From a virus (Duplodnaviria > Heunggongvirae > Uroviricota > Caudoviricetes), in the IMG/VR virus record IMGVR_UViG_2537562194_000013: a stretch of 22,567 nt of DNA; one strand, 5' to 3'. The position numbers were made by a program, and so were the translations under genes. Of this stretch, positions 8,958-22,567 are shown one piece after another. Under the pieces are notes generated by a model. It was not told the origin of the DNA, did no database searches, and worked only from the letters and a program-made list of their open reading frames with translations. The first letter of the stretch is position 1, and each line of letters starts with the position of its first letter.

Positions 8958-9635
8958 TCACTCCACTACAAACCAGTCACATGCCAGTAAGTCGCCTACA
9001 GAAGGAACCCACGGAACAACTACACCTTGTGCATTTTTTAAGGCGAAATAAGCACCATACGGAACGAGGTCGCCGGGGAAATATCCCTTAATGGCTTCCA
9101 TTCGTGCCGGGTACTGTCCTTCAGGAACCAGCCAGCAGAATTGGTTTTCGCCGTTCCACCCGCGTCGGGCAACTTTCTTGCCATCCTTCAGCCACATCAG
9201 CGCGTCAGAAAAGTCGGCTGCTTCAAGGTCGATTTCTTCTTGTAGAGTAGCGATACCGCCAGCAGAAATAGTTACGTCCCTGGCTGTAATGAATGTCACC
9301 CCATTGTGACCTTCAATGCTGAGCGATACCCCATTTTCGAAGAAGTCGTTAGTCCGACTAAAGCCTTCTTCAAATGTTTTTTCTGGTGAATAGGACAGAG
9401 ATCCGTCCTCATAAGCGACCAGATATCCGCCAATTTCTGGTCGGTGTTTTTGCAAAAATATTTTATCAACATGGACTTTTACCCCTTCTGGCTCAACGAC
9501 TTCGATGTTGCAAAAAAGGACCACATCCATTAGGGCGATAATTTCGATATCTTTGATTTTTGAGGCGCGAACTGTTTTATGGCTTTTGTATTTTGGAAGT
9601 GCCGTCAAAAGCTCTTTCGTTGTCATGTTATTCAT
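8958..9635 (-). CDS. Two-domain protein with a C-terminal DUF2829 (Tad2-like) domain
   Basis: I prefer ATG 9635 (MNNMTTKELL...), which has an AGAGGA ribosome-binding site, over the track start at 9803. The C-terminal ~80 aa (FSDALMWLKDGKKVARRGWNGENQFCWL...VVVPWVPSVGDLLACDWFVVE) fits the DUF2829 signature as I recall it: ALK-GKK-RR-GWNG, then PW-PS--DLLA-DW. The N-terminal ~140 aa is unrecognised. Confidence 0.7.
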   Translation of the reverse strand: MNNMTTKELLTALPKYKSHKTVRASKIKDIEIIALMDVVLFCNIEVVEPEGVKVHVDKIFLQKHRPEIGGYLVAYEDGSLSYSPEKTFEEGFSRTNDFFENGVSLSIEGHNGVTFITARDVTISAGGIATLQEEIDLEAADFSDALMWLKDGKKVARRGWNGENQFCWLVPEGQYPARMEAIKGYFPGDLVPYGAYFALKNAQGVVVPWVPSVGDLLACDWFVVE

Positions 9636-9832
9636 AGTCTTTCCTCTGCTTAAAACCTGATGTATTGCGCCTTCAGGTGGGTCAGGAATGTTTTCCCACC
9701 AGCGAACGCAATATCTCGGGGTGTTCTTTTCGTGAAAAGCGCGTGCCATTGCCAACTTTGGCGTTTGTTTGCGAGTTCGTGCTTTTGTCGGCGTCTGGAC
9801 CACCGCTTTTCTTTCAGTCGTTTTTTACACAT

Positions 9833-10321
9833 TCAAAACGGAATATCGTCGTCAAAGTCCATTGGAGGTTCGTTATTGGCGTTGCTCTGAGGTTTACCGC
9901 CACCACTGTATTGCTGGTGGTTTTGAGGTTGGTTTGATTGCCCCCAGCCATTTGAGGACTGTGAATCGTCACGGCGAGCGCCGATCATTTGCATGGTGCC
10001 GCCCTGGCTGACGATAATTTCCGTCGTGTAACGTTCTACACCGGCGTCATCTGTCCACTTACGGGTTTTAAGTTTCCCTTCGATGTAGACCTGAGAACCT
10101 TTTCGTAAATACTCACTCGCAATTTCAGCAAGTTTTCCGAACAAAACGACTTTATGCCATTCTGTTTGCTCTTTCTGTTGGCCCGTTTGCTTGTCGCGCC
10201 ATGATTCATTCGTTGCGATGCTGAGTCTTCCGACCGCTCCGCCATTTGGTATATACCTGATCTCCGGGTCTTGCCCCAGAGTACCAATCAGGATGACTTT
10301 GTTTACACCGCGTTGTGCCAC
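9833..10321 (-). CDS. ssb: Single-stranded DNA-binding protein
   Basis: 162 aa. N-terminal OB-fold signature ([20 protein letters not shown]...[37 protein letters not shown]), Gly/Gln-rich linker, and the canonical acidic tail [11 protein letters not shown] start at 10321. Confidence 0.92.
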
Positions 10322-10340: not shown

Positions 10341-10357
10341 AAATTAATTAGAGCAAT
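10341..10357 (-). promoter_or_regulatory. P1 C1-repressor operator-like 17-mer in the ssb promoter region
   Basis: The minus-strand sequence ATTGCTCTAATTAATTT matches the asymmetric C1 operator consensus ATTGCTCTAATAAATTT at 16 of 17 positions. It lies 20-36 bp upstream of the ssb start, just downstream of a TATACA -10-like hexamer in the ssb direction. Confidence 0.55.
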
Positions 10358-14136: not shown

Positions 14137-17100
14137 ATGAACAAGCTATCTATGGGGGTGTTTCGCTGTTCAAGTGTCAGCGAAATATTAAAATACATTA
14201 GGGCAATAACATCTCACCAAGCGCCGATTAAATATGGCGTGGAAAAGGTGGAAGGCAAAAGCTATGACCGACTGCGCCGGGAGGCGAATCAGAAGGCGAT
14301 AGATTTGCTTAATTCGCTGGTGGACGGCGCGACACTGACAGATGAACAGCGCCAGATCCTGGCTGGGTACACCGGTGAAGGCGGCATTGGCGGGTCCGTC
14401 TCCGAATATTACACACCAAAGCCGATCGCTGAAGGTGTCTGGGAGATCATGAAGCTCTACGGCGCGGACGTAGGTAACACTCTGGAACCATCGGCGGGAA
14501 CCGGCGTTTTTAATGAGACAAAACCGGTTGGTACGGTGATGACCGCGACTGAGATCAGCAGTGTTTCCGGTCGTATAAACCAGTTGTTACACCCGGAAGA
14601 CAGCGTACAGATTTCCCCGTTCGAACAGCTGGCTATAAGCACGCCTAACGATTCATTCGACCATGTTGTGGGTAACGTTCCGTTCGGCGGTCGTGATAAC
14701 ACACGCAACATCGATAAGCCTTACGCAGAAGAAACGGACATGGGTTCTTACTTCATGCTCCGCATGCTGGACAAGATAAAGCCAGGCGGATTCATGTGCG
14801 TGATTGTGCCGCCGTCCATTGTTTCAGGTTCAAACATGAAGCGGTTACGCCTGCGCCTATCACGGAAAGCTGAATTTCTTGGTGCCCACCGCTTGCCTAC
14901 CGGTACTTTTGACGCAAACGGGACCAGTACAGTCGTTGATGTGGTGCTGATGCGCAAACATCCGGCAGAGATGGCTGAGAAAATCCCCCTGGTGGATGAA
15001 AGCACTCTTGAATCGGCAAATGTGCTTTGGCCAACGTTTATTTCTGGCAAGTGGTTTGAAAAGGATGGCCGCCGGTTTGTTCATGGCACCCAGGAAAAGG
15101 GCTTCCAGGGGCGTATTGAGGTTCGTGCCGACGGTCAGATTGATAACCAGGCTCTTAAAGCGAAGCTGATTCATCGTTTCGAAAGCCGTATCGACTGGTC
15201 TTTGCTCGATATGGCTGAACCGTCACTGACCGCAGACGTTGTTGGTGAAGGGGAAATGCGCCTGATTAATGGCGTATGGCAAAAATATGCTGGTGGTCGC
15301 TGGATTGAAGCTGATGCCGGGAAGGAACTTAAAATTGATGCTGCCAGTTATGGCGCGGATAGCTGGGAGGCTCTTCAGCGTAACCTGACTACAACAGAAG
15401 GCCGTCTCGGTATGACATTTACCCAGATGGCAAATGTCCGCGATAAGTACACCACATCAATCAGCGACGATATGGTGCAGCTGGTGGACTGGATTAACAG
15501 CCAGCCTGAAAAATACCGTGAACGCTTGTATCGTGGGGCGATGATTGGCCGGATGTTAATTGAATATCAGGATATGAAGGCCGCCGGGCATAGTGCTGAA
15601 CAAATCGAACAGCAGCGCCTTTCTCTGGTATCCCGTTTGCAGGCAGAGATTGACCGTTTTGGTAACCCTGGTCGCGGTCCGATAGCTAAATTATCGGGAA
15701 GCGGTGCGCGCGCCTGGTTTGCTTTCCGTGGTGCAATTAAGCTGGATGGCACTATTTCTGACGAGCTGACAGGAAAGCTGGTTACGCATGATTCCAGCGC
15801 CAGTTATGACTCCACCAGCTATCAGGACACCCTGCGTTATCTCTATAGCGATCTTACCCGCGATCCAATCCAGCTCGATGATTTCCGCCTTGCGTTTACC
15901 GGCGAATTGCCAGCCAGTGATGAAGAGTTGCTTAATTTATTGGCCAGCACTCCTGGTATTGCGGTTTCACCGTATGGCGGGATTGTTCCGTTCGCCCGCG
16001 CCACCAGCGGCGACATTAACGAGATAGTGGCTCCAAAACAGGAATTCCTCGCCACGCTCCCCGACGGTCCAGTAAAGAACAACGTCCTTAATCAGCTGGC
16101 AGCGATCGAAGAGAAGCGCATCAAGACGCCAGCAGAGAATATCCGGTTTAAGCTCAATAGCCGTTGGTTCGACCGTTCCGTCATTCTGGAGTTTTTGCAG
16201 GAAAACGGCTATCCGGATCTGCGCTATGTGCAGTCAGTGCAGCTGGAAGGCGACGAAATGGTTTCTGACACCTATCACGGTGGTGATGGCCTGTTCGTCG
16301 GGCACCGATACGGTGTCGTCCAGCGCAAGGATAAAGAAACAGGCGAGATCCGCTACGAGTGGGACCGTAAATCAGGTGAAAACGCGACCGGGTTCCCGGC
16401 ACAGCTGGAAAAGTATCTCAATGGTGCGCGTATCGGTGGCAAAGATAGCGCGACGGCGAACGGCTACCGCGAGCAGATGGCACTGCTTGAGGACCAGTTC
16501 AATAAGTGGATCAAGACGCACGATCGCTACGATGAACTGGTTGCCAAATACAACGATGTGTTCAATAGCAATATCCCGTATGAACACTCTGGCGATCCGC
16601 TTGGGTTGAAGGGATTAAGCGGTAAGCGCCAGCCATTTGATTACCAGAATAGCGAAGTGCGCCGACTGTCCGAAGATGGGCGCGGCATCCTGGGCTTCGG
16701 CACCGGGCTGGGTAAAACTACGACCGCGCTGGCGCTTGAGGCGTTCAACTATGAGAACGGTCGCTCCACCCGTACTGCGTATGTAGTGCCTAAATCAGTG
16801 CTGGAAAACTGGTATTACGAAGCAAAAGAATTCCTGAGTGAAGAGGCATTCAGTAACTACCTGTTCGTCGGTCTTGATGTGCTGATGGATGGCGATCAGA
16901 TTCGCCAGGTGCCGGTGCTCGATGAGAACGGTAAACCTGTTCTTGGTACTGATGGCACTCCAGTTATGCGCGATGCCCTAAAACTGGCAGATGAAGCCAC
17001 TATCACGGCGCGGATGAACGCGATCCCGCACTCAAATTACCGTGCAGTCGTGTTTACCAAAGAACAATACGCCCGCATTCCGCTACGTGATGACACCGTA

Positions 17101-20100
17101 GATGAGCATGCACAGGATATGCTTTATGACTTCGTTGCCGCCGGGCGCGTAGCCAGCGCAATGGACTCCGACTCCCACCGCAAAGAGGCCGCGCGTCGCC
17201 GGGTATTGTCGGAGTATTCAGATACCGGCACCGAAAAAGCAGAGAAGTATCCGTACTTTGAGGATATGGGCTTCGATAGTGTGATCGCTGACGAAGGTCA
17301 CAACTACCGCAATAGCTATAAAAATGGTCGCGAAGCGTCACAACTGGCCTATCTGCCCACCAGCGCGGTGGCGCAATCGGCGCGGGATATGGCAATTAAA
17401 AACGCGTACCTGATGAAAAAGAATGGTGGGCGCGGACCGGTTCTCCTGACTGCAACGCCAGTCGTTAACACCCCGATCGATGCATACAACATGCTTTCTC
17501 ATGTGCTGCCGAAGGAATACTGGCAGAAGATGGGGATCTACGGTCCTGATGACTTCGTTAAATTCTTCGGCAAGACCAGGCTGGAAACGGTACAGAAAAT
17601 CAGCGGTGAAGTTGAAGAAAAAATGGCGCTGGTGGGCTTTGAAAACCTTGATGCGCTGCGCGGCATATTCCATCGCTGGACAACGCTTAAAACGGCGGAA
17701 GACGTTAAGGATACCGTGGAGATCCCGGAACTGGACGAACACCAGCAGGATGCACCACTTACGGAAGAACAACTGGCGGCGTATGAAGAATTGCGTCAGC
17801 AGGCGGAAGCGGCAGCCAAAGCCAACAATGGCGTAACGACCTCGGTCAATGAAGACGGCGTGATTGAGCACGAGAAAGCCCGTCCGATCTTCTCAATAAT
17901 CAGGGATATGGACCGCGTATGTACTGACATGGACCTGTACTATCGCAGGATCACCTATCGTTTCCTGCCGGAGTACGCCGATGCGGTGCAGCAGCTGGCG
18001 GACAGTTTGCCTAAACAAGCCACCAGCGAAGACGACGACAGTGATGATTCGATCACGCAGCAATCGCAATACTCCCTGATAGATAAGGGCGAGTTTATTC
18101 AGTTGCAGGTACCGGAAGCATTTGAGCAGGAAGTGAATAAGCGCCTGGCCAAGTTTGGCATTGACGAACAGACCGTAACTCACCCCGTTACGCCCAAATA
18201 CGCGAAGCTGATTGCCACGCTGAAGGAGTTTTTCCCGGAAGGTAAGCAAATCATCTTCACCGATGAAAAAACGCAACACCAGAAGCTCAAGCGCATTATC
18301 TGCAATGCTCTTAACCTTGAACCTTCAAAGGTGGGGATCCTGAATGCTCAGACGGTTGCCGAGGCAGGTAAAACCGGTAAGAAACTGAAAGCGGTTAAAC
18401 CGCCGAAAGAGCTACCGGATGAACCAACAGATGCACAGATAGCGAAATACAACGAGCAAATGGCTCTGTATGACGCCTATATCGCGCAGCAAAATGAAAT
18501 GTCGCTGGGTGGGCTGGAAAAGATTGCTGCCGACTTCCAGGAGGGCCGGACTCCGATCATCATCTGCAACAAAAAGGCAGAGGTGGGTATCAACCTGCAT
18601 CGAGGAACGACGGATATCCACCACCTGACGTTGCCGTGGACACCAGCCAGTATCGCACAACGTAACGGTCGCGGTGCACGAGTTGGCTCCAACCGTGCAA
18701 GCGTTCGCGTTCACTACTACTGCGGCAAGGGGTCTTTCGATGAATACCGACTGAAGACGCTGAAGCGTAAAGCAGGCTGGATCTCCGATATCCTCCGTTC
18801 AGATAAGTCAGAAATGGAGAACGCCGACGCCAATGACATGATCGAAATGCAGATGTATACCGCGAAGGATGACGGCGAACGTCTGGTAATGATGCAGGTT
18901 CAAATGGATAAGGCGAAAGCTGCGAAACGCGCTCGCCAGAAAGAACAGGCTACTATCGACCTTCAGAACTACATCAAGGCGCAGCACGCAGCTGGTGAGG
19001 ATGTGGAGGTACTTACCGCTGAATTGGAGCGAAGCAAAGCGGAACTTGAAAAGACCACCGCCGAGGTAGCTAAATTCAAACAGGCGGTAATGGCCAAAGC
19101 AGCTGATAACGCAGACTGGAAAGCCCGCTGGGGTAGCGTCCATCACACAGACCGTACGTTGTTAGCACAGTATCGCGCGTCGTTGAAAAGCGCCATTCAG
19201 CGCAAGGCTAATATCTCTCAAGCCATCTCCCGCTATGAGAAATTATTGAACCGTACTCAGAAGGCCGCGACGGATATCAAACGCCTGCGCCCGCTGGTGG
19301 AGGATGCAATAAATAAAGGCATTCTGGATGTTGATCCTGACCTGGTTAACCATGCGAGTGAGTTCCTTGTTATCGGCGATCGCTCATGGCGTGTAGGCCA
19401 ATACTACGATTGTGCCGGTGATATCGTTCGCATTAAGTCGCTGGACTTCGACAGCCAGCGCGCAGACGTGGAGATTATCTTTACCTTCAAAGGTACCAAA
19501 TCGGGTAACTGGGATGTGAAGACGCTGGATAAACAGGTTGATGTAACTCCCGATGAAGATGCTGTTATGCAGAAAATCAGTGGTGGCGTCTCCATCGCCG
19601 GGATTAACGACATCATTTCCTGTGACGATTTCTACCGTTTCCAGCAGCGCGGCATGATCAAAATCACTGACTCATACGGCGTTCAGACTACAGAGTCAGG
19701 CTATAGCATCGATTTTGTTGGTACCTATACGGACCCACTGAAGCATGCGGTTTACCCGGATCGCCGTGACGGCGCGCTGAAGTCGTCAATTGCAAAATGG
19801 GTGCTTGGTATGATGTCGGAAGGGAATAACCGCCAGATCCGTTCGGCAGAAACATTCCTGGTTGAACTGTTTGGCTCCAATTATGGCGATGTAATCGCGT
19901 CATACGGAGATACGCTATCCCCTGAAGCAATTCAGGAGAAAATAGCGGATGCGATCGCCAGAATGCCGGAAAAAACAAGCCAGGGGGCTACTCGTAACGG
20001 GGATTCTGAACTTGAAGTCACCAATGCCATTTTCGGTACCAATGAGTTCCGGGCGTCAGATTATGAGATCACCACAGCACAGTTTGGCACCATTGGCATT

Positions 20101-20904
20101 TACAGCAATAAAGACGAGATCAAACAGTCAATGGACGCTGCAAGCGCGCGCATTGCAGCAGAACGCAAAGCCAATCTGAATCATGCAGTTTCCGCGCTGA
20201 CTCAATCGTGGGTAACAGCAATCAGGGAGGCCGCCACCACAGGAAAAATCACACCGGCAATTGCGGATGTCGTAAACGACGGCTCTAAATTTATGGATGC
20301 CTATAAAATGGATGCGGTGCAGTTGCCATCAGCCTATGGTCAACTCAGCTATCGCATGACCTACAACCTGGTATCAATGTTTTCCGACCTTGCCATCCTT
20401 GGGCTGGTGGATCTTAACGAGGTTACGCCGGAATTGCTCAGCATGCGCAAGAATCATGTGGAGATATTGCAGAGAATTAACACGGTTCTTGCCGGGCGCA
20501 CCGATGAAGAGAAACAGGCCGACGCTGATCGGATAAACCTGGCCCTTGGCAACATCACGGAGGAAGAGATTGCCGCCAGAAACGAGAAACAAGAAGAGTT
20601 ATCATCAATACAGGGTGATGCCACCAGCATAGCTCAGTCTCTTGGTCTGAATTATCGCGTATCCACCGCCGACCTGAAGATGATGTACGCACCAAAATTC
20701 GCCGCTGGCGAGGTATTTGGGCTTCAGGAAGCCTCAGGCATGAAAGGCGTTCTTTTCCGTGCGAAAGACGCAATCAAGGCGAAATTCGGCGCTCGCTGGC
20801 TGCCAGCGAAGGCGAAGAACAGCGATTTCCCGGGTAACTGGTGGATTATCGAGACAAAACACAACGTGGCGGACGTTCTGGCCGTCATCCAACAATACGC
20901 ATAA
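14137..20904 (+). CDS. darB: DarB: N6-adenine methyltransferase / DExH helicase fusion antirestriction protein
   Basis: 2255-aa ORF, which matches my recollection of P1 DarB length. It contains a methyltransferase AdoMet motif I (LEPSAGTGVF), an amino-methyltransferase motif IV (NVPF), helicase Walker A (GFGTGLGKTTTA), a DEGH box, and motif VI (QRNGRGARVG). Confidence 0.95.
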   Translation: MNKLSMGVFRCSSVSEILKYIRAITSHQAPIKYGVEKVEGKSYDRLRREANQKAIDLLNSLVDGATLTDEQRQILAGYTGEGGIGGSVSEYYTPKPIAEGVWEIMKLYGADVGNTLEPSAGTGVFNETKPVGTVMTATEISSVSGRINQLLHPEDSVQISPFEQLAISTPNDSFDHVVGNVPFGGRDNTRNIDKPYAEETDMGSYFMLRMLDKIKPGGFMCVIVPPSIVSGSNMKRLRLRLSRKAEFLGAHRLPTGTFDANGTSTVVDVVLMRKHPAEMAEKIPLVDESTLESANVLWPTFISGKWFEKDGRRFVHGTQEKGFQGRIEVRADGQIDNQALKAKLIHRFESRIDWSLLDMAEPSLTADVVGEGEMRLINGVWQKYAGGRWIEADAGKELKIDAASYGADSWEALQRNLTTTEGRLGMTFTQMANVRDKYTTSISDDMVQLVDWINSQPEKYRERLYRGAMIGRMLIEYQDMKAAGHSAEQIEQQRLSLVSRLQAEIDRFGNPGRGPIAKLSGSGARAWFAFRGAIKLDGTISDELTGKLVTHDSSASYDSTSYQDTLRYLYSDLTRDPIQLDDFRLAFTGELPASDEELLNLLASTPGIAVSPYGGIVPFARATSGDINEIVAPKQEFLATLPDGPVKNNVLNQLAAIEEKRIKTPAENIRFKLNSRWFDRSVILEFLQENGYPDLRYVQSVQLEGDEMVSDTYHGGDGLFVGHRYGVVQRKDKETGEIRYEWDRKSGENATGFPAQLEKYLNGARIGGKDSATANGYREQMALLEDQFNKWIKTHDRYDELVAKYNDVFNSNIPYEHSGDPLGLKGLSGKRQPFDYQNSEVRRLSEDGRGILGFGTGLGKTTTALALEAFNYENGRSTRTAYVVPKSVLENWYYEAKEFLSEEAFSNYLFVGLDVLMDGDQIRQVPVLDENGKPVLGTDGTPVMRDALKLADEATITARMNAIPHSNYRAVVFTKEQYARIPLRDDTVDEHAQDMLYDFVAAGRVASAMDSDSHRKEAARRRVLSEYSDTGTEKAEKYPYFEDMGFDSVIADEGHNYRNSYKNGREASQLAYLPTSAVAQSARDMAIKNAYLMKKNGGRGPVLLTATPVVNTPIDAYNMLSHVLPKEYWQKMGIYGPDDFVKFFGKTRLETVQKISGEVEEKMALVGFENLDALRGIFHRWTTLKTAEDVKDTVEIPELDEHQQDAPLTEEQLAAYEELRQQAEAAAKANNGVTTSVNEDGVIEHEKARPIFSIIRDMDRVCTDMDLYYRRITYRFLPEYADAVQQLADSLPKQATSEDDDSDDSITQQSQYSLIDKGEFIQLQVPEAFEQEVNKRLAKFGIDEQTVTHPVTPKYAKLIATLKEFFPEGKQIIFTDEKTQHQKLKRIICNALNLEPSKVGILNAQTVAEAGKTGKKLKAVKPPKELPDEPTDAQIAKYNEQMALYDAYIAQQNEMSLGGLEKIAADFQEGRTPIIICNKKAEVGINLHRGTTDIHHLTLPWTPASIAQRNGRGARVGSNRASVRVHYYCGKGSFDEYRLKTLKRKAGWISDILRSDKSEMENADANDMIEMQMYTAKDDGERLVMMQVQMDKAKAAKRARQKEQATIDLQNYIKAQHAAGEDVEVLTAELERSKAELEKTTAEVAKFKQAVMAKAADNADWKARWGSVHHTDRTLLAQYRASLKSAIQRKANISQAISRYEKLLNRTQKAATDIKRLRPLVEDAINKGILDVDPDLVNHASEFLVIGDRSWRVGQYYDCAGDIVRIKSLDFDSQRADVEIIFTFKGTKSGNWDVKTLDKQVDVTPDEDAVMQKISGGVSIAGINDIISCDDFYRFQQRGMIKITDSYGVQTTESGYSIDFVGTYTDPLKHAVYPDRRDGALKSSIAKWVLGMMSEGNNRQIRSAETFLVELFGSNYGDVIASYGDTLSPEAIQEKIADAIARMPEKTSQGATRNGDSELEVTNAIFGTNEFRASDYEITTAQFGTIGIYSNKDEIKQSMDAASARIAAERKANLNHAVSALTQSWVTAIREAATTGKITPAIADVVNDGSKFMDAYKMDAVQLPSAYGQLSYRMTYNLVSMFSDLAILGLVDLNEVTPELLSMRKNHVEILQRINTVLAGRTDEEKQADADRINLALGNITEEEIAARNEKQEELSSIQGDATSIAQSLGLNYRVSTADLKMMYAPKFAAGEVFGLQEASGMKGVLFRAKDAIKAKFGARWLPAKAKNSDFPGNWWIIETKHNVADVLAVIQQYA
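14374..15036 (+). other. DarB methyltransferase domain (approximate boundaries)
   Basis: Motif I EPSAGTG is at nt 14482-14505 and motif IV NVPF at nt 14674-14685. Domain limits are estimated by eye. Confidence 0.6.
16669..18696 (+). other. DarB superfamily-2 helicase core (approximate boundaries)
   Basis: Walker A GLGKTT is near nt 16700-16720, DEGH at 17290-17301, and motif VI QRNGRGAR at 18658-18681. Confidence 0.6.
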
Positions 20905-20937: not shown

Positions 20938-21378
20938 ATGGCCACACTATCTGATACAATAAAACCGAATAAAACATATCTTGAGGCGGTACTCCGTACA
21001 GCGTTGTTAGGAAAGACAGAAGACGAATACGTTGATTTCTTCCTGTCAGGGCTACGCGGGCGATTACTGAAAAATCCCCGCCTGTACCGCAGCTATGGCC
21101 CATACTGGCCGGAAATTAAAAAATTATTACTGGAGCGCGGTTATGGTAATTTCGGTCGTCTCGTTGACCGTGACGTTCGCAAAATTTACCGTTATGACCG
21201 CCCGGCGCTGACGCTCATAGCTGCGACGCTCTACAGCCAGGAGCGTTTTGATAATGGTCAGATATACTCAGCCTGGCATTTACTGCCAGTGCCTGAAGAG
21301 GTTGACGACCAGGACTATGAGTTTGAGTCTTACGATTTGGAAGTTGAAGCCTTGGCACAGGCTGGAGAGAAAACTTGA
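20938..21378 (+). CDS. ulx: Ulx-like protein (darB-associated)
   Basis: 146 aa, immediately downstream of darB and upstream of the 82-aa ORF, as in the P1 darB-ulx-lxc order. The name is assigned by synteny and size only. Confidence 0.5.
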   Translation: MATLSDTIKPNKTYLEAVLRTALLGKTEDEYVDFFLSGLRGRLLKNPRLYRSYGPYWPEIKKLLLERGYGNFGRLVDRDVRKIYRYDRPALTLIAATLYSQERFDNGQIYSAWHLLPVPEEVDDQDYEFESYDLEVEALAQAGEKT

Positions 21379-21623
21379 AGAAGCGATACTACACAGTAAA
21401 GCATGGGACGCTACGAGCATTGCAAGAGTTTGCTGATAAGCATAACGTTGAGGTGCGCAGGGAAGGGGGAAGTAAAGCTCTGCGCATGTACCGTCCTGAC
21501 GGAAAATGGCGGACGGTCGTCGATTTCAAAACTAACAGTGTTCCCCAGGGCGTCCGCGACCGGGCATTCGAAGAATGGGAGCAGATCATCATAGATAACG
21601 CATTGCTCCTGAATGCTGATTAA
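21375..21623 (+). CDS. Small basic protein (82 aa); Lxc/Bof-like by position
   Basis: TTG start at 21375 with GGAGAG 7 nt upstream, overlapping the preceding stop (TTGA). It sits where P1 has lxc, the modulator of C1 repression. Sequence identity to Lxc is not verified. Confidence 0.45.
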   Translation: MKKRYYTVKHGTLRALQEFADKHNVEVRREGGSKALRMYRPDGKWRTVVDFKTNSVPQGVRDRAFEEWEQIIIDNALLLNAD

Positions 21624-21638
21624 ACTTCCCGCCATTTT

Positions 21639-21656
21639 GCCCGGCATCAACCGGGC
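21639..21656. terminator. Hairpin GCCCGG-CATCAA-CCGGGC between convergent genes
   Basis: 6-bp GC stem with a 6-nt loop, followed by ATTCTTCC on the plus strand. The T-tract is weak. Confidence 0.35.
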
Positions 21657-21665
21657 ATTCTTCCA

Positions 21666-22535
21666 TTATTCAGCCGCCACCGGTTTTAACAAGCCAGCAT
21701 CGAGCAGTTTACGCGTCAACCACTGCTGGCCTTTACCCGTTAATTGAGGCGTCAACCGTATCTGGTAGCCATCTTCATCATCCAGCACCACTTCTTTCAC
21801 CGTGAAATACCCCGCGTTGATGTACTGCTGGAACGGCACATTTTTACGTCCACCGGACGCTATCAGGATGCCGTTCTCCCGTAACCAGACAAACAGCGCG
21901 TTTTGCTTAAGTCCAACAACCTTTGCAAAATTCCCAATCAGGATCCCTTTAGCTACTGATACCCGGTCGGCAAAATCGACTTTAGGAGCGGCGGCCACCA
22001 GCTGCTGATTTAGCTGGTGGGCTTTCTGTTCCAGAAGTTGCTTTTGTTCAGCCAGTTCGGCAGCCAGGCGTAGGGCTTCAGGAAGCGTCTGGGGGATTGC
22101 GATCGGTTGCTGTTCTTTTTGTCGGAAGTAGCTGTCTTCCAGTTTTTCAAAGAATGCCCATGCCTGATCGGTTTCGAGCATTTTAGCGTGGCGGGCTGCG
22201 CCGCGTTCTGTCCAGAGGGTGAGTGAGCGAACATTGCGAGCAATTTTTACAGAGTAGTTTAAAGCTACTCTGTGCTTCAACTCGCGCAATGATTCTCCTT
22301 CAACTTTGAAAAAGTGCTTCCCTTCAACAAAGCGTACTTTGTTCTCATGATGATTTTGGCGAATACGGATTGTTTCTGTCCCATACCCTCTAGCAAGAGT
22401 CTCGGTTGTCACTACACGCACTCCCTGCCATTCCAGAACGGGAATTTCATCAGACTGATTCTGAACAACCACCAGCTCCGATTCCTGAACTGAAGGTGCA
22501 TGAATTTTTTCTAATTTAACGTTATTTGCTTTCAT
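21666..22535 (-). CDS. Phage antirepressor-like protein with N-terminal ORF6N domain and C-terminal KilAC/Ant domain
   Basis: 289 aa. ATG 22535 with AAGGAGG 8 nt upstream. N-terminal signature (WQGVRVVTTETLARGYGTETIRIRQNHHENKVRFVEGKHFFKVEGESLRELK) and a C-terminal Ant-type region (FADRVSVAKGILIGNFAKVVGLKQNALFVWLRENGILI) flank a central Gln-rich linker. Confidence 0.75.
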   Translation of the reverse strand: MKANNVKLEKIHAPSVQESELVVVQNQSDEIPVLEWQGVRVVTTETLARGYGTETIRIRQNHHENKVRFVEGKHFFKVEGESLRELKHRVALNYSVKIARNVRSLTLWTERGAARHAKMLETDQAWAFFEKLEDSYFRQKEQQPIAIPQTLPEALRLAAELAEQKQLLEQKAHQLNQQLVAAAPKVDFADRVSVAKGILIGNFAKVVGLKQNALFVWLRENGILIASGGRKNVPFQQYINAGYFTVKEVVLDDEDGYQIRLTPQLTGKGQQWLTRKLLDAGLLKPVAAE

Positions 22536-22567
22536 TCTGTGTGCCTCCTTGCGTGCTTCGGCTGCGA

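Follow-up and report, generated by a model that had tools for sequence, protein, structure and literature searches.

The antirepressor-like gene at the right end of the window (the whole 22,567-nt stretch of DNA analyzed here) is very probably the 3′ end of the ant1/ant2 gene of an additional P1/P7-type immI operon, which is inserted as a ~2.2-kb module between lxc and mat at the hot spot RD-1. Earlier work has already covered the gene family, how it is regulated and its occurrence at this hot spot: the res–mod interval has been defined as RD-1, and icd-ant1/2 homologs at RD-1 have been reported, with p95JB1A named (Venturini et al. 2019, PMC6906374). The features of the gene in the window are as follows.

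21666–22567, minus strand: ant1-type antirepressor gene, 3′ 299 codons plus stop; frame open to the contig end; ~370–372 aa in complete relatives
21666–22535, minus strand: nested ant2-equivalent ORF of 289 aa, the ORF seen in the sequence-only reading; ATG aligned with the annotated ant2 start
22544–22550, minus strand: ant2 ribosome-binding site AAGGAGG, inside the ant1 frame (codons K-E-A)
21702–22007, minus strand: KilAC domain (PF03374, Pfam), closely related to the C-terminal part of P1/P7 Ant
22179–22439, minus strand: ORF6N domain (PF10543, Pfam), in the place of the central segment of P1/P7 Ant

The ORF list gives a 289-aa ORF at 21666–22535 (minus strand), near the window end, and its reading frame continues without a stop from the ATG at 22535 through base 22567 (..AAEARKEAHR-M..). 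In a protein alignment, this ATG coincides with Met84 of both P1 Ant1 and P7 Ant1, the codon annotated in X15639 (P1) and AF503408 (P7) as the start of ant2, which is ‘contained within ant1 and translated in the same frame’ and has its own ribosome-binding site. Because the frame is open to the window end and the ATG falls on Met84, the window covers the last 299 codons of an ant1 of ~370 aa; this portion aligns to residues 74–372 of the 370–372-aa Ant proteins from p95JB1A, pLH10-b-1-B and pUMNF18_103. Of the Ant1-specific N-terminal ~83 residues, only the last 10 codons (AAEARKEAHR) lie inside the window; in complete relatives the segment is present and P1-like. The sequence-only reading had credited the gene with a strong ribosome-binding site. 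The motif is there, 8 nt ahead of the ATG and at the same offset as the site annotated before P1 ant2 in X15639, but because the ATG sits on the annotated ant2 start, it is the internal ant2 signal and not that of the gene start. The 289-aa ORF is not a stand-alone gene; it is a cut-off part of a nested ant1/ant2 gene of ~370 aa and should be annotated as such.

The same reading had described an antirepressor-like protein with ORF6N and KilAC domains, and this description holds. Pfam places ORF6N at aa 33–119 (E = 1.3e-19) and KilAC/ANT (PF03374) at aa 177–278 (E = 2.6e-31) of the 289-aa ORF, which matches PHROG 63 ‘anti-repressor Ant’ (E = 8.9e-83) and has the N-terminal ORF6N and C-terminal KilAC architecture of PHROG 63 antirepressors. 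The ant DNA is 86.6% identical to P1 ant1/ant2. The likeness to P1/P7 immI (c4-icd-ant1/ant2) covers the nested ant2 start with its ribosome-binding site at the homologous codon, as well as the Ant1 N-terminal segment and the KilAC domain, both highly similar, whereas the center of Ant here is ORF6N. This central segment cannot be aligned with P1/P7 Ant, to which homology does not extend here, and Pfam gives no ORF6N match for P1 Ant1. The ORF6N half best resembles lambdoid Roi and the KilAC half AntB of Stx phages, at ~59–63% identity per part; unlike here, Roi and AntB are encoded by two adjacent genes without the ant1 N-terminal extension, icd coupling or C4 control. Within ORF6N, alignment reveals a ~55-aa cassette (window ~22215–22380) with at least four sharply different alleles between near-identical flanks. 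These alleles are independent of genomic site, with one common to the c1 site and RD-1 and another to RD-1 and the ref site, and they are also independent of C4 type. A PDB sequence search returned no relative of Ant, and NCBIfam returned nothing for Ant, for mat or for a 103-aa ORF described below. As a separate observation, P1 Ant1 in X15639 ends 25–26 residues before P7 Ant1 and all plasmid Ant proteins, while the downstream DNA is still homologous.

The gene abuts the following backbone genes, whose darB-ulx-lxc DNA is 97.5% identical to P1.

14137–20904, plus strand: darB (2,255 aa), the start of the darB-ulx-lxc stretch
20938–21378, plus strand: ulx (146 aa), backbone gene; PHROG 1629 ‘Ulx-like anti-restriction’, E = 4.5e-66
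21375–21623, plus strand: lxc (82 aa), C1 co-repressor gene (immT); PHROG 2160, matches P1 and P7 lxc; final backbone gene before the variable site
21639–21656, no strand assigned: GC-rich hairpin GCCCGG-CATCAA-CCGGGC between the convergent lxc and ant

Pfam gives no match for Ulx or Lxc. The window has ant convergent with lxc, whereas P1 has mod and res after lxc in the same orientation, and a convergent mat; comparison with this lxc-mod-res layout bears out the earlier statement that the gene stands where P1 carries its restriction genes. The type III EcoP1 arrangement, in which lxc and the mod and res genes behind it read in one direction, is not found here. The hairpin folds at −13.8 kcal/mol (z = −2.9, plus strand). 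Its loop and right arm are identical after every ant copy, and empty sites keep the stem with a different loop; the joint between backbone and inserted module falls in the left stem. A promoter/terminator consensus scan did not call a terminator here and there is no T-run, and we refer to the element as a hairpin, not as a proven terminator.

The lxc site is a variable cargo locus and not conserved core, in line with the proposal that the gene marks the edge of a variable region. Both ulx and lxc are present in 674 of 5,426 complete Escherichia coli genomes; among these 674, the P1-type lxc–mod junction is seen in 55 and an ant gene close to lxc in 13. In the four ant-less records that we inspected, and in the hit table, lxc stands directly against mat, and relative to such empty plasmids the module measures ~2.2 kb. 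A query for the lxc–mat junction taken from pO111_2 undercounts empty sites (mat alleles diverge to 90–95% identity) and was not used as a frequency. The ant family is near-ubiquitous in P1-like elements, and ant at the lxc site is rare: icd–ant1 junctions occur at 896 places in 570 genomes, with 1–6 per genome, and icd-ant copies can also stand in place of ref (pUMNF18_103 and pO111_2). Synteny across P1-like elements, which the earlier reading had proposed to compare, has res/mod not adjoining ant in the near-identical complete plasmids. Adjacency to res/mod was rejected on the grounds that none lies between lxc and cre in p95JB1A.

Several relatives show what else this site can hold. The RD-1 icd-ant1/2 region of pSvP1 and of p95JB1A/p95NR1 is the same module at the same hot spot, with CP021336 and CP021340 named as best match in Table 1 of PMC6906374; pSvP1 differs in having two more ORFs, including a putative regulator, and the layout of pUMNF18_103 looks similar. 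There, two extra genes separate lxc from ant, encoding a DUF3944 protein and an HTH protein, and the hit-table row for ETEC1731, our one source for that genome, gives the same layout. In the lxc–ant interval of pUMNF18_103 (L006, 10400–11623), the DUF3944 protein has a strong PADLOC match to JukA (E = 3e-66) and is followed by the 151-aa HTH protein; PADLOC gave no JukB match in this interval. The JukA-like gene, which is absent from the window, may be defense cargo at RD-1 in these relatives.

Beyond the window end, the near-identical complete plasmids carry what is, judged by its sequence, a complete P1/P7-type immI operon, described here for the RD-1 copy of p95JB1A. The order in p95JB1A, pLH10-b-1-B and contigs L009 and L010 is darB, ulx and lxc, then convergent ant (370 aa), icd (73 aa) and an RNA region, followed by the 103-aa ORF on the other strand, mat (213 aa), ref, c8, cre and cra. 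The icd stop and ant1 start overlap as ATGA in p95JB1A and other relatives, with icd outside the window. Upstream of icd, Rfam identifies the C4 antisense RNA (RF01695, 70.7–72.1 bits, threshold 45) and the c4-a1b1 element (RF03163, 55.5–56.8 bits, threshold 46.7) in relatives. A C1 operator, ATTGCTCTAATAgATTT, lies at 14515–14531 of p95JB1A (L003), outside the window, with one mismatch and no such matches in shuffled sequences; a TTGATC/TATAGT promoter is present as in P1, and the icd ribosome-binding site is embedded in the b2 target. The ATGA overlap, a1b1-type C4 RNA and upstream C1 operator of the complete relatives are shared with P1/P7 immI, from which the module differs in lying between lxc and mat and not beside kilA-repL. 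RefSeq names the genes in relatives ‘phage antirepressor KilAC domain-containing protein’ and ‘Icd-like’. By extension from these relatives, the source strain of the window probably has the same upstream genes (icd, C4 and operator). The 103-aa ORF of the inserted module (p95JB1A, L003, 14637–14948, plus strand) starts with MKLGNLLAAAIVLTITAC, resembling a lipoprotein signal that includes a lipobox; a match exists to PHROG 16031, a family of unknown function, and Pfam, NCBIfam and PADLOC give nothing.

The window is the entire draft contig AEZV02000124.1 (22,567 bp, assembly GCA_000194355.2, identified by an exact DarB protein match), which means that the assembly stops at its right end within a gene present in several copies. 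The complete plasmid p95JB1A (CP021336) encodes an identical 2,255-aa DarB. Full-length BLAST of the window against it gives 66 mismatches and 14 gaps, all at or past 22178, and positions 1–22177 are identical. Two segments bear on the origin of the contig end.

21774–22177, no strand assigned: exact repeat of 404 nt, shared by the two ant copies of p95JB1A that adjoin lxc and c1; the interval in which the hybrid crosses over
22178–22567, minus strand: stretch of ~390 nt from another paralog, with no mismatches to the c1-adjacent copy of p95JB1A and ~90 differences from its lxc-adjacent copy

Either the contig end was misjoined or gene conversion produced the segment 22178–22567. With moderate confidence we favor a contig-end chimera, in which the ~170 C-terminal codons come from the lxc-adjacent copy, the ORF6N part comes from the c1-adjacent copy and the assembler joined the two over the 404-nt repeat. 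The window carries the bases of the lxc-adjacent copy at 21637, 21747, 21755 and 21773, which ties the 3′ part to that copy, while everything from 22178 onward fits the c1-adjacent one. The contig ends at the edge of a ~290-nt stretch that is near-identical in all three p95JB1A ant copies. Among the contigs listed, the long ones with identical DarB (L009, L010 and L011) have the other cassette beside lxc, and further draft contigs end at the cassette or ahead of it (L013 at the position equivalent to 22208, and L014). The exact hybrid of the window was absent from phage, plasmid and complete E. coli collections when a full-length match was sought. Against a chimera, assemblers tend to stop at repeats of this kind instead of guessing, and real gene conversion would look alike; it is a plausible alternative because the RD-1 copy of pUMNF18_103 has the same cassette allele, as does that of ETEC1731 according to the hit table, our one source for that genome. 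The N-terminal part of the ORF may belong to another locus, and the N-terminal half should not serve as a reference before the repeat has been sorted out. That an ant gene abuts lxc is secure under chimera and gene conversion alike; the chimera concerns sequence authenticity and is compatible with the immI-operon explanation.

The modules differ in the two loops of their C4 RNAs, which read as follows.

P1: b′ CACUAAC, a′ CUGUCAA
P7: b′ CACAAUC, a′ CUGCUAA
p95JB1A, RD-1: b′ CAUGUAC, a′ CUGCUAA
pLH10-b-1-B, RD-1: b′ CAUGUAC, a′ CUGUCAA
pUMNF18_103, RD-1: b′ CGUAAGU, a′ CUGCUAA

Throughout this a1b1-type set, each module’s own loops are exactly complementary to all four of its targets, namely a1 and b1, which lie upstream of c4, and a2 and b2, which lie at the icd ribosome-binding site. 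The RD-1 modules differ from P1/P7 immI in their new b′ loop (CAUGUAC or CGUAAGU), which is paired with a P1 or P7 a′ allele. P1 and P7 differ from each other at the very loop positions that vary among modules, and their heteroimmunity has been ascribed to minor nucleotide differences in immI (PMC6906374). C4 specificity was not analyzed in that paper, and beyond its remark our literature searches found no paper on orthogonal C4 specificities of multiple immI modules.

p95JB1A has three intact immI modules, at the canonical site before kilA-repL, in the pacB–c1 interval and at RD-1, with three different loop sets that each match their own targets; the c1-adjacent isrK-type module has one G–U pair in a2 and one in b1 and b2. 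The modules at the canonical and pacB/c1 sites form a second subtype, in which an isrK-like RNA (RF01394) precedes C4 in place of c4-a1b1, and the RD-1 module is the only P1/P7-type (a1b1) one in this plasmid. Copies of this second subtype lie at L003 21845–22035, L018 29152–29361 and L002 21445–21655. The immI-type copy in the pacB–c1 interval (p95JB1A, pO111_2, RCS47 and vB_EcoM-673R5) shares with the window an Ant that is 99.7% identical over the window’s 299 residues, together with the terminal hairpin, and differs in the isrK-like element ahead of it and in its other C4 subtype. From the loop and target sequences, we infer that the RD-1 module would provide a third, independent immunity specificity.

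If it behaves like its P1 and P7 homologs, the module would work as an antisense-controlled switch. Its predicted layout runs from a C1 operator and promoter through a1/b1, C4 RNA and a2/b2 over the icd ribosome-binding site to icd, ant1 with nested ant2 and the hairpin. The module’s own C4 RNA would pair with a2/b2 and block translation of icd and with it that of the coupled ant1. If C4 control failed, or if the module entered a cell without matching C4, Ant1 and Ant2 would be made, bind the C1 repressor and lift repression. With C4 loops and targets unlike those of the other immI copies, the module would add a separate immunity specificity. The P7 record AF503408 annotates Ant1/Ant2/C1 complex formation, the action of C4 on icd/ant and Op(c4). 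Binding of C1 by Ant1/Ant2, known for P1 and P7 only, and an effect on immunity are presumed here by analogy, and because the central domain is ORF6N and not of the P1/P7 type, C1 binding should not be assumed from P1 Ant biochemistry.

Some points weigh against the immI-operon explanation. The window holds nothing upstream of ant1 codon 74, and icd, C4 and the operator are putative here, projected from relatives; the 5′ 390 nt of the gene in the window are probably from another paralog; and Ant has no solved structure or curated NCBIfam model. Redundancy and decay also occur, some extra copies being IS-interrupted or split (pO111_2), and one could read the RD-1 gene as a redundant duplicate that has no role of its own, was spread by recombination between paralogs and is on its way to decay. 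Its presence at the lxc site in only 13 of 674 elements agrees with such a fate, as does the state of pO111_2, whose ref-site copy consists of pseudogene fragments and whose c1-adjacent ant is parted from icd by IS1203. We nevertheless consider a decaying duplicate improbable, given that the ORFs are intact in p95JB1A, pLH10-b-1-B and pUMNF18_103 and that the C4 loops and all four targets have changed together, which requires selection for function.

Equally unlikely, in our estimate, is that the protein acts as a Roi/AntB-like antirepressor on the repressors of other prophages (lambdoid, Stx), causing cross-induction without acting on a P1-type C1. The affinity of its ORF6N half to lambdoid Roi and of its KilAC half to Stx-phage AntB (~59–63% identity), together with a central domain unlike that of P1/P7 Ant, speaks for this possibility, but the N-terminal 83 aa of Ant1 and KilAC are close to P1/P7 Ant, and relatives have the gene in a complete immI operon with a C1 operator and a P1/P7-type C4. 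The suggestion that the neighbors beyond the window could include an uncharacterized system fared worst. RD-1 does carry defense cargo in some relatives (EcoP1 res/mod in P1, JukA-like and HTH genes in pUMNF18_103), but the next genes in p95JB1A are icd, C4 with its targets and the C1 operator, and the 103-aa lipoprotein-like ORF, then the backbone genes mat, ref, c8 and cre. PADLOC gives Ant only weak ORF6N-level matches (E ~1e-5 to 1e-6, candidate families) and none for icd, the 103-aa ORF or mat. We regard it as very improbable that the gene is the edge of an uncharacterized defense or anti-defense system just beyond the window, and for the window’s own element this reading was rejected, PADLOC having returned no significant match.

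The array of modules invites a wider, tentative idea that goes beyond the finding itself and is only modestly novel. P1-like phage-plasmids might collect orthogonal immI modules as keys in an arms race, each with its own C4 lock, freely combined a′ and b′ alleles and a swappable ORF6N cassette, and the RD-1 copy would then be one exchangeable key and not a passive duplicate. If this were true, an incoming ant module that escapes the C4 set of the resident would break the resident’s immunity, and residents carrying a larger range of C4 types would withstand a larger range of relatives. To study how antisense-RNA immunity specificities diversify, P1-like plasmids that bear two or three immI modules of different C4 specificity would be a well-suited natural model, and they could show whether extra antirepressor modules decide competition between related phage-plasmids.

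Further observations concern individual copies and the rest of the window. Extra immI copies decay in some plasmids: at the c1 site of pO111_2, IS1203 separates icd from ant, and the ref-site copy is split into an ORF6N and a KilAC pseudogene fragment. In vB_EcoM-673R5 (L001, 5151–5560), the gene annotated ‘repressor protein C1’ beside the icd-ant copy is 192 nt long, which suggests that c1 is disrupted in this record. Elsewhere in the window, a 281-aa ORF at 8958–9803 (minus strand) has a precomputed Pfam match to PF11195 (Tad2-like/DUF2829), the family of the anti-Thoeris sponge Tad2, and no PADLOC match. Finally, a C1-operator-like site, ATTGCTCTAATtAATTT, is found at 10341–10357 (minus strand) with one mismatch, where 0.02 such sites are expected by chance, and it lies just upstream of an ssb-like ORF at 9833–10321 (minus strand).
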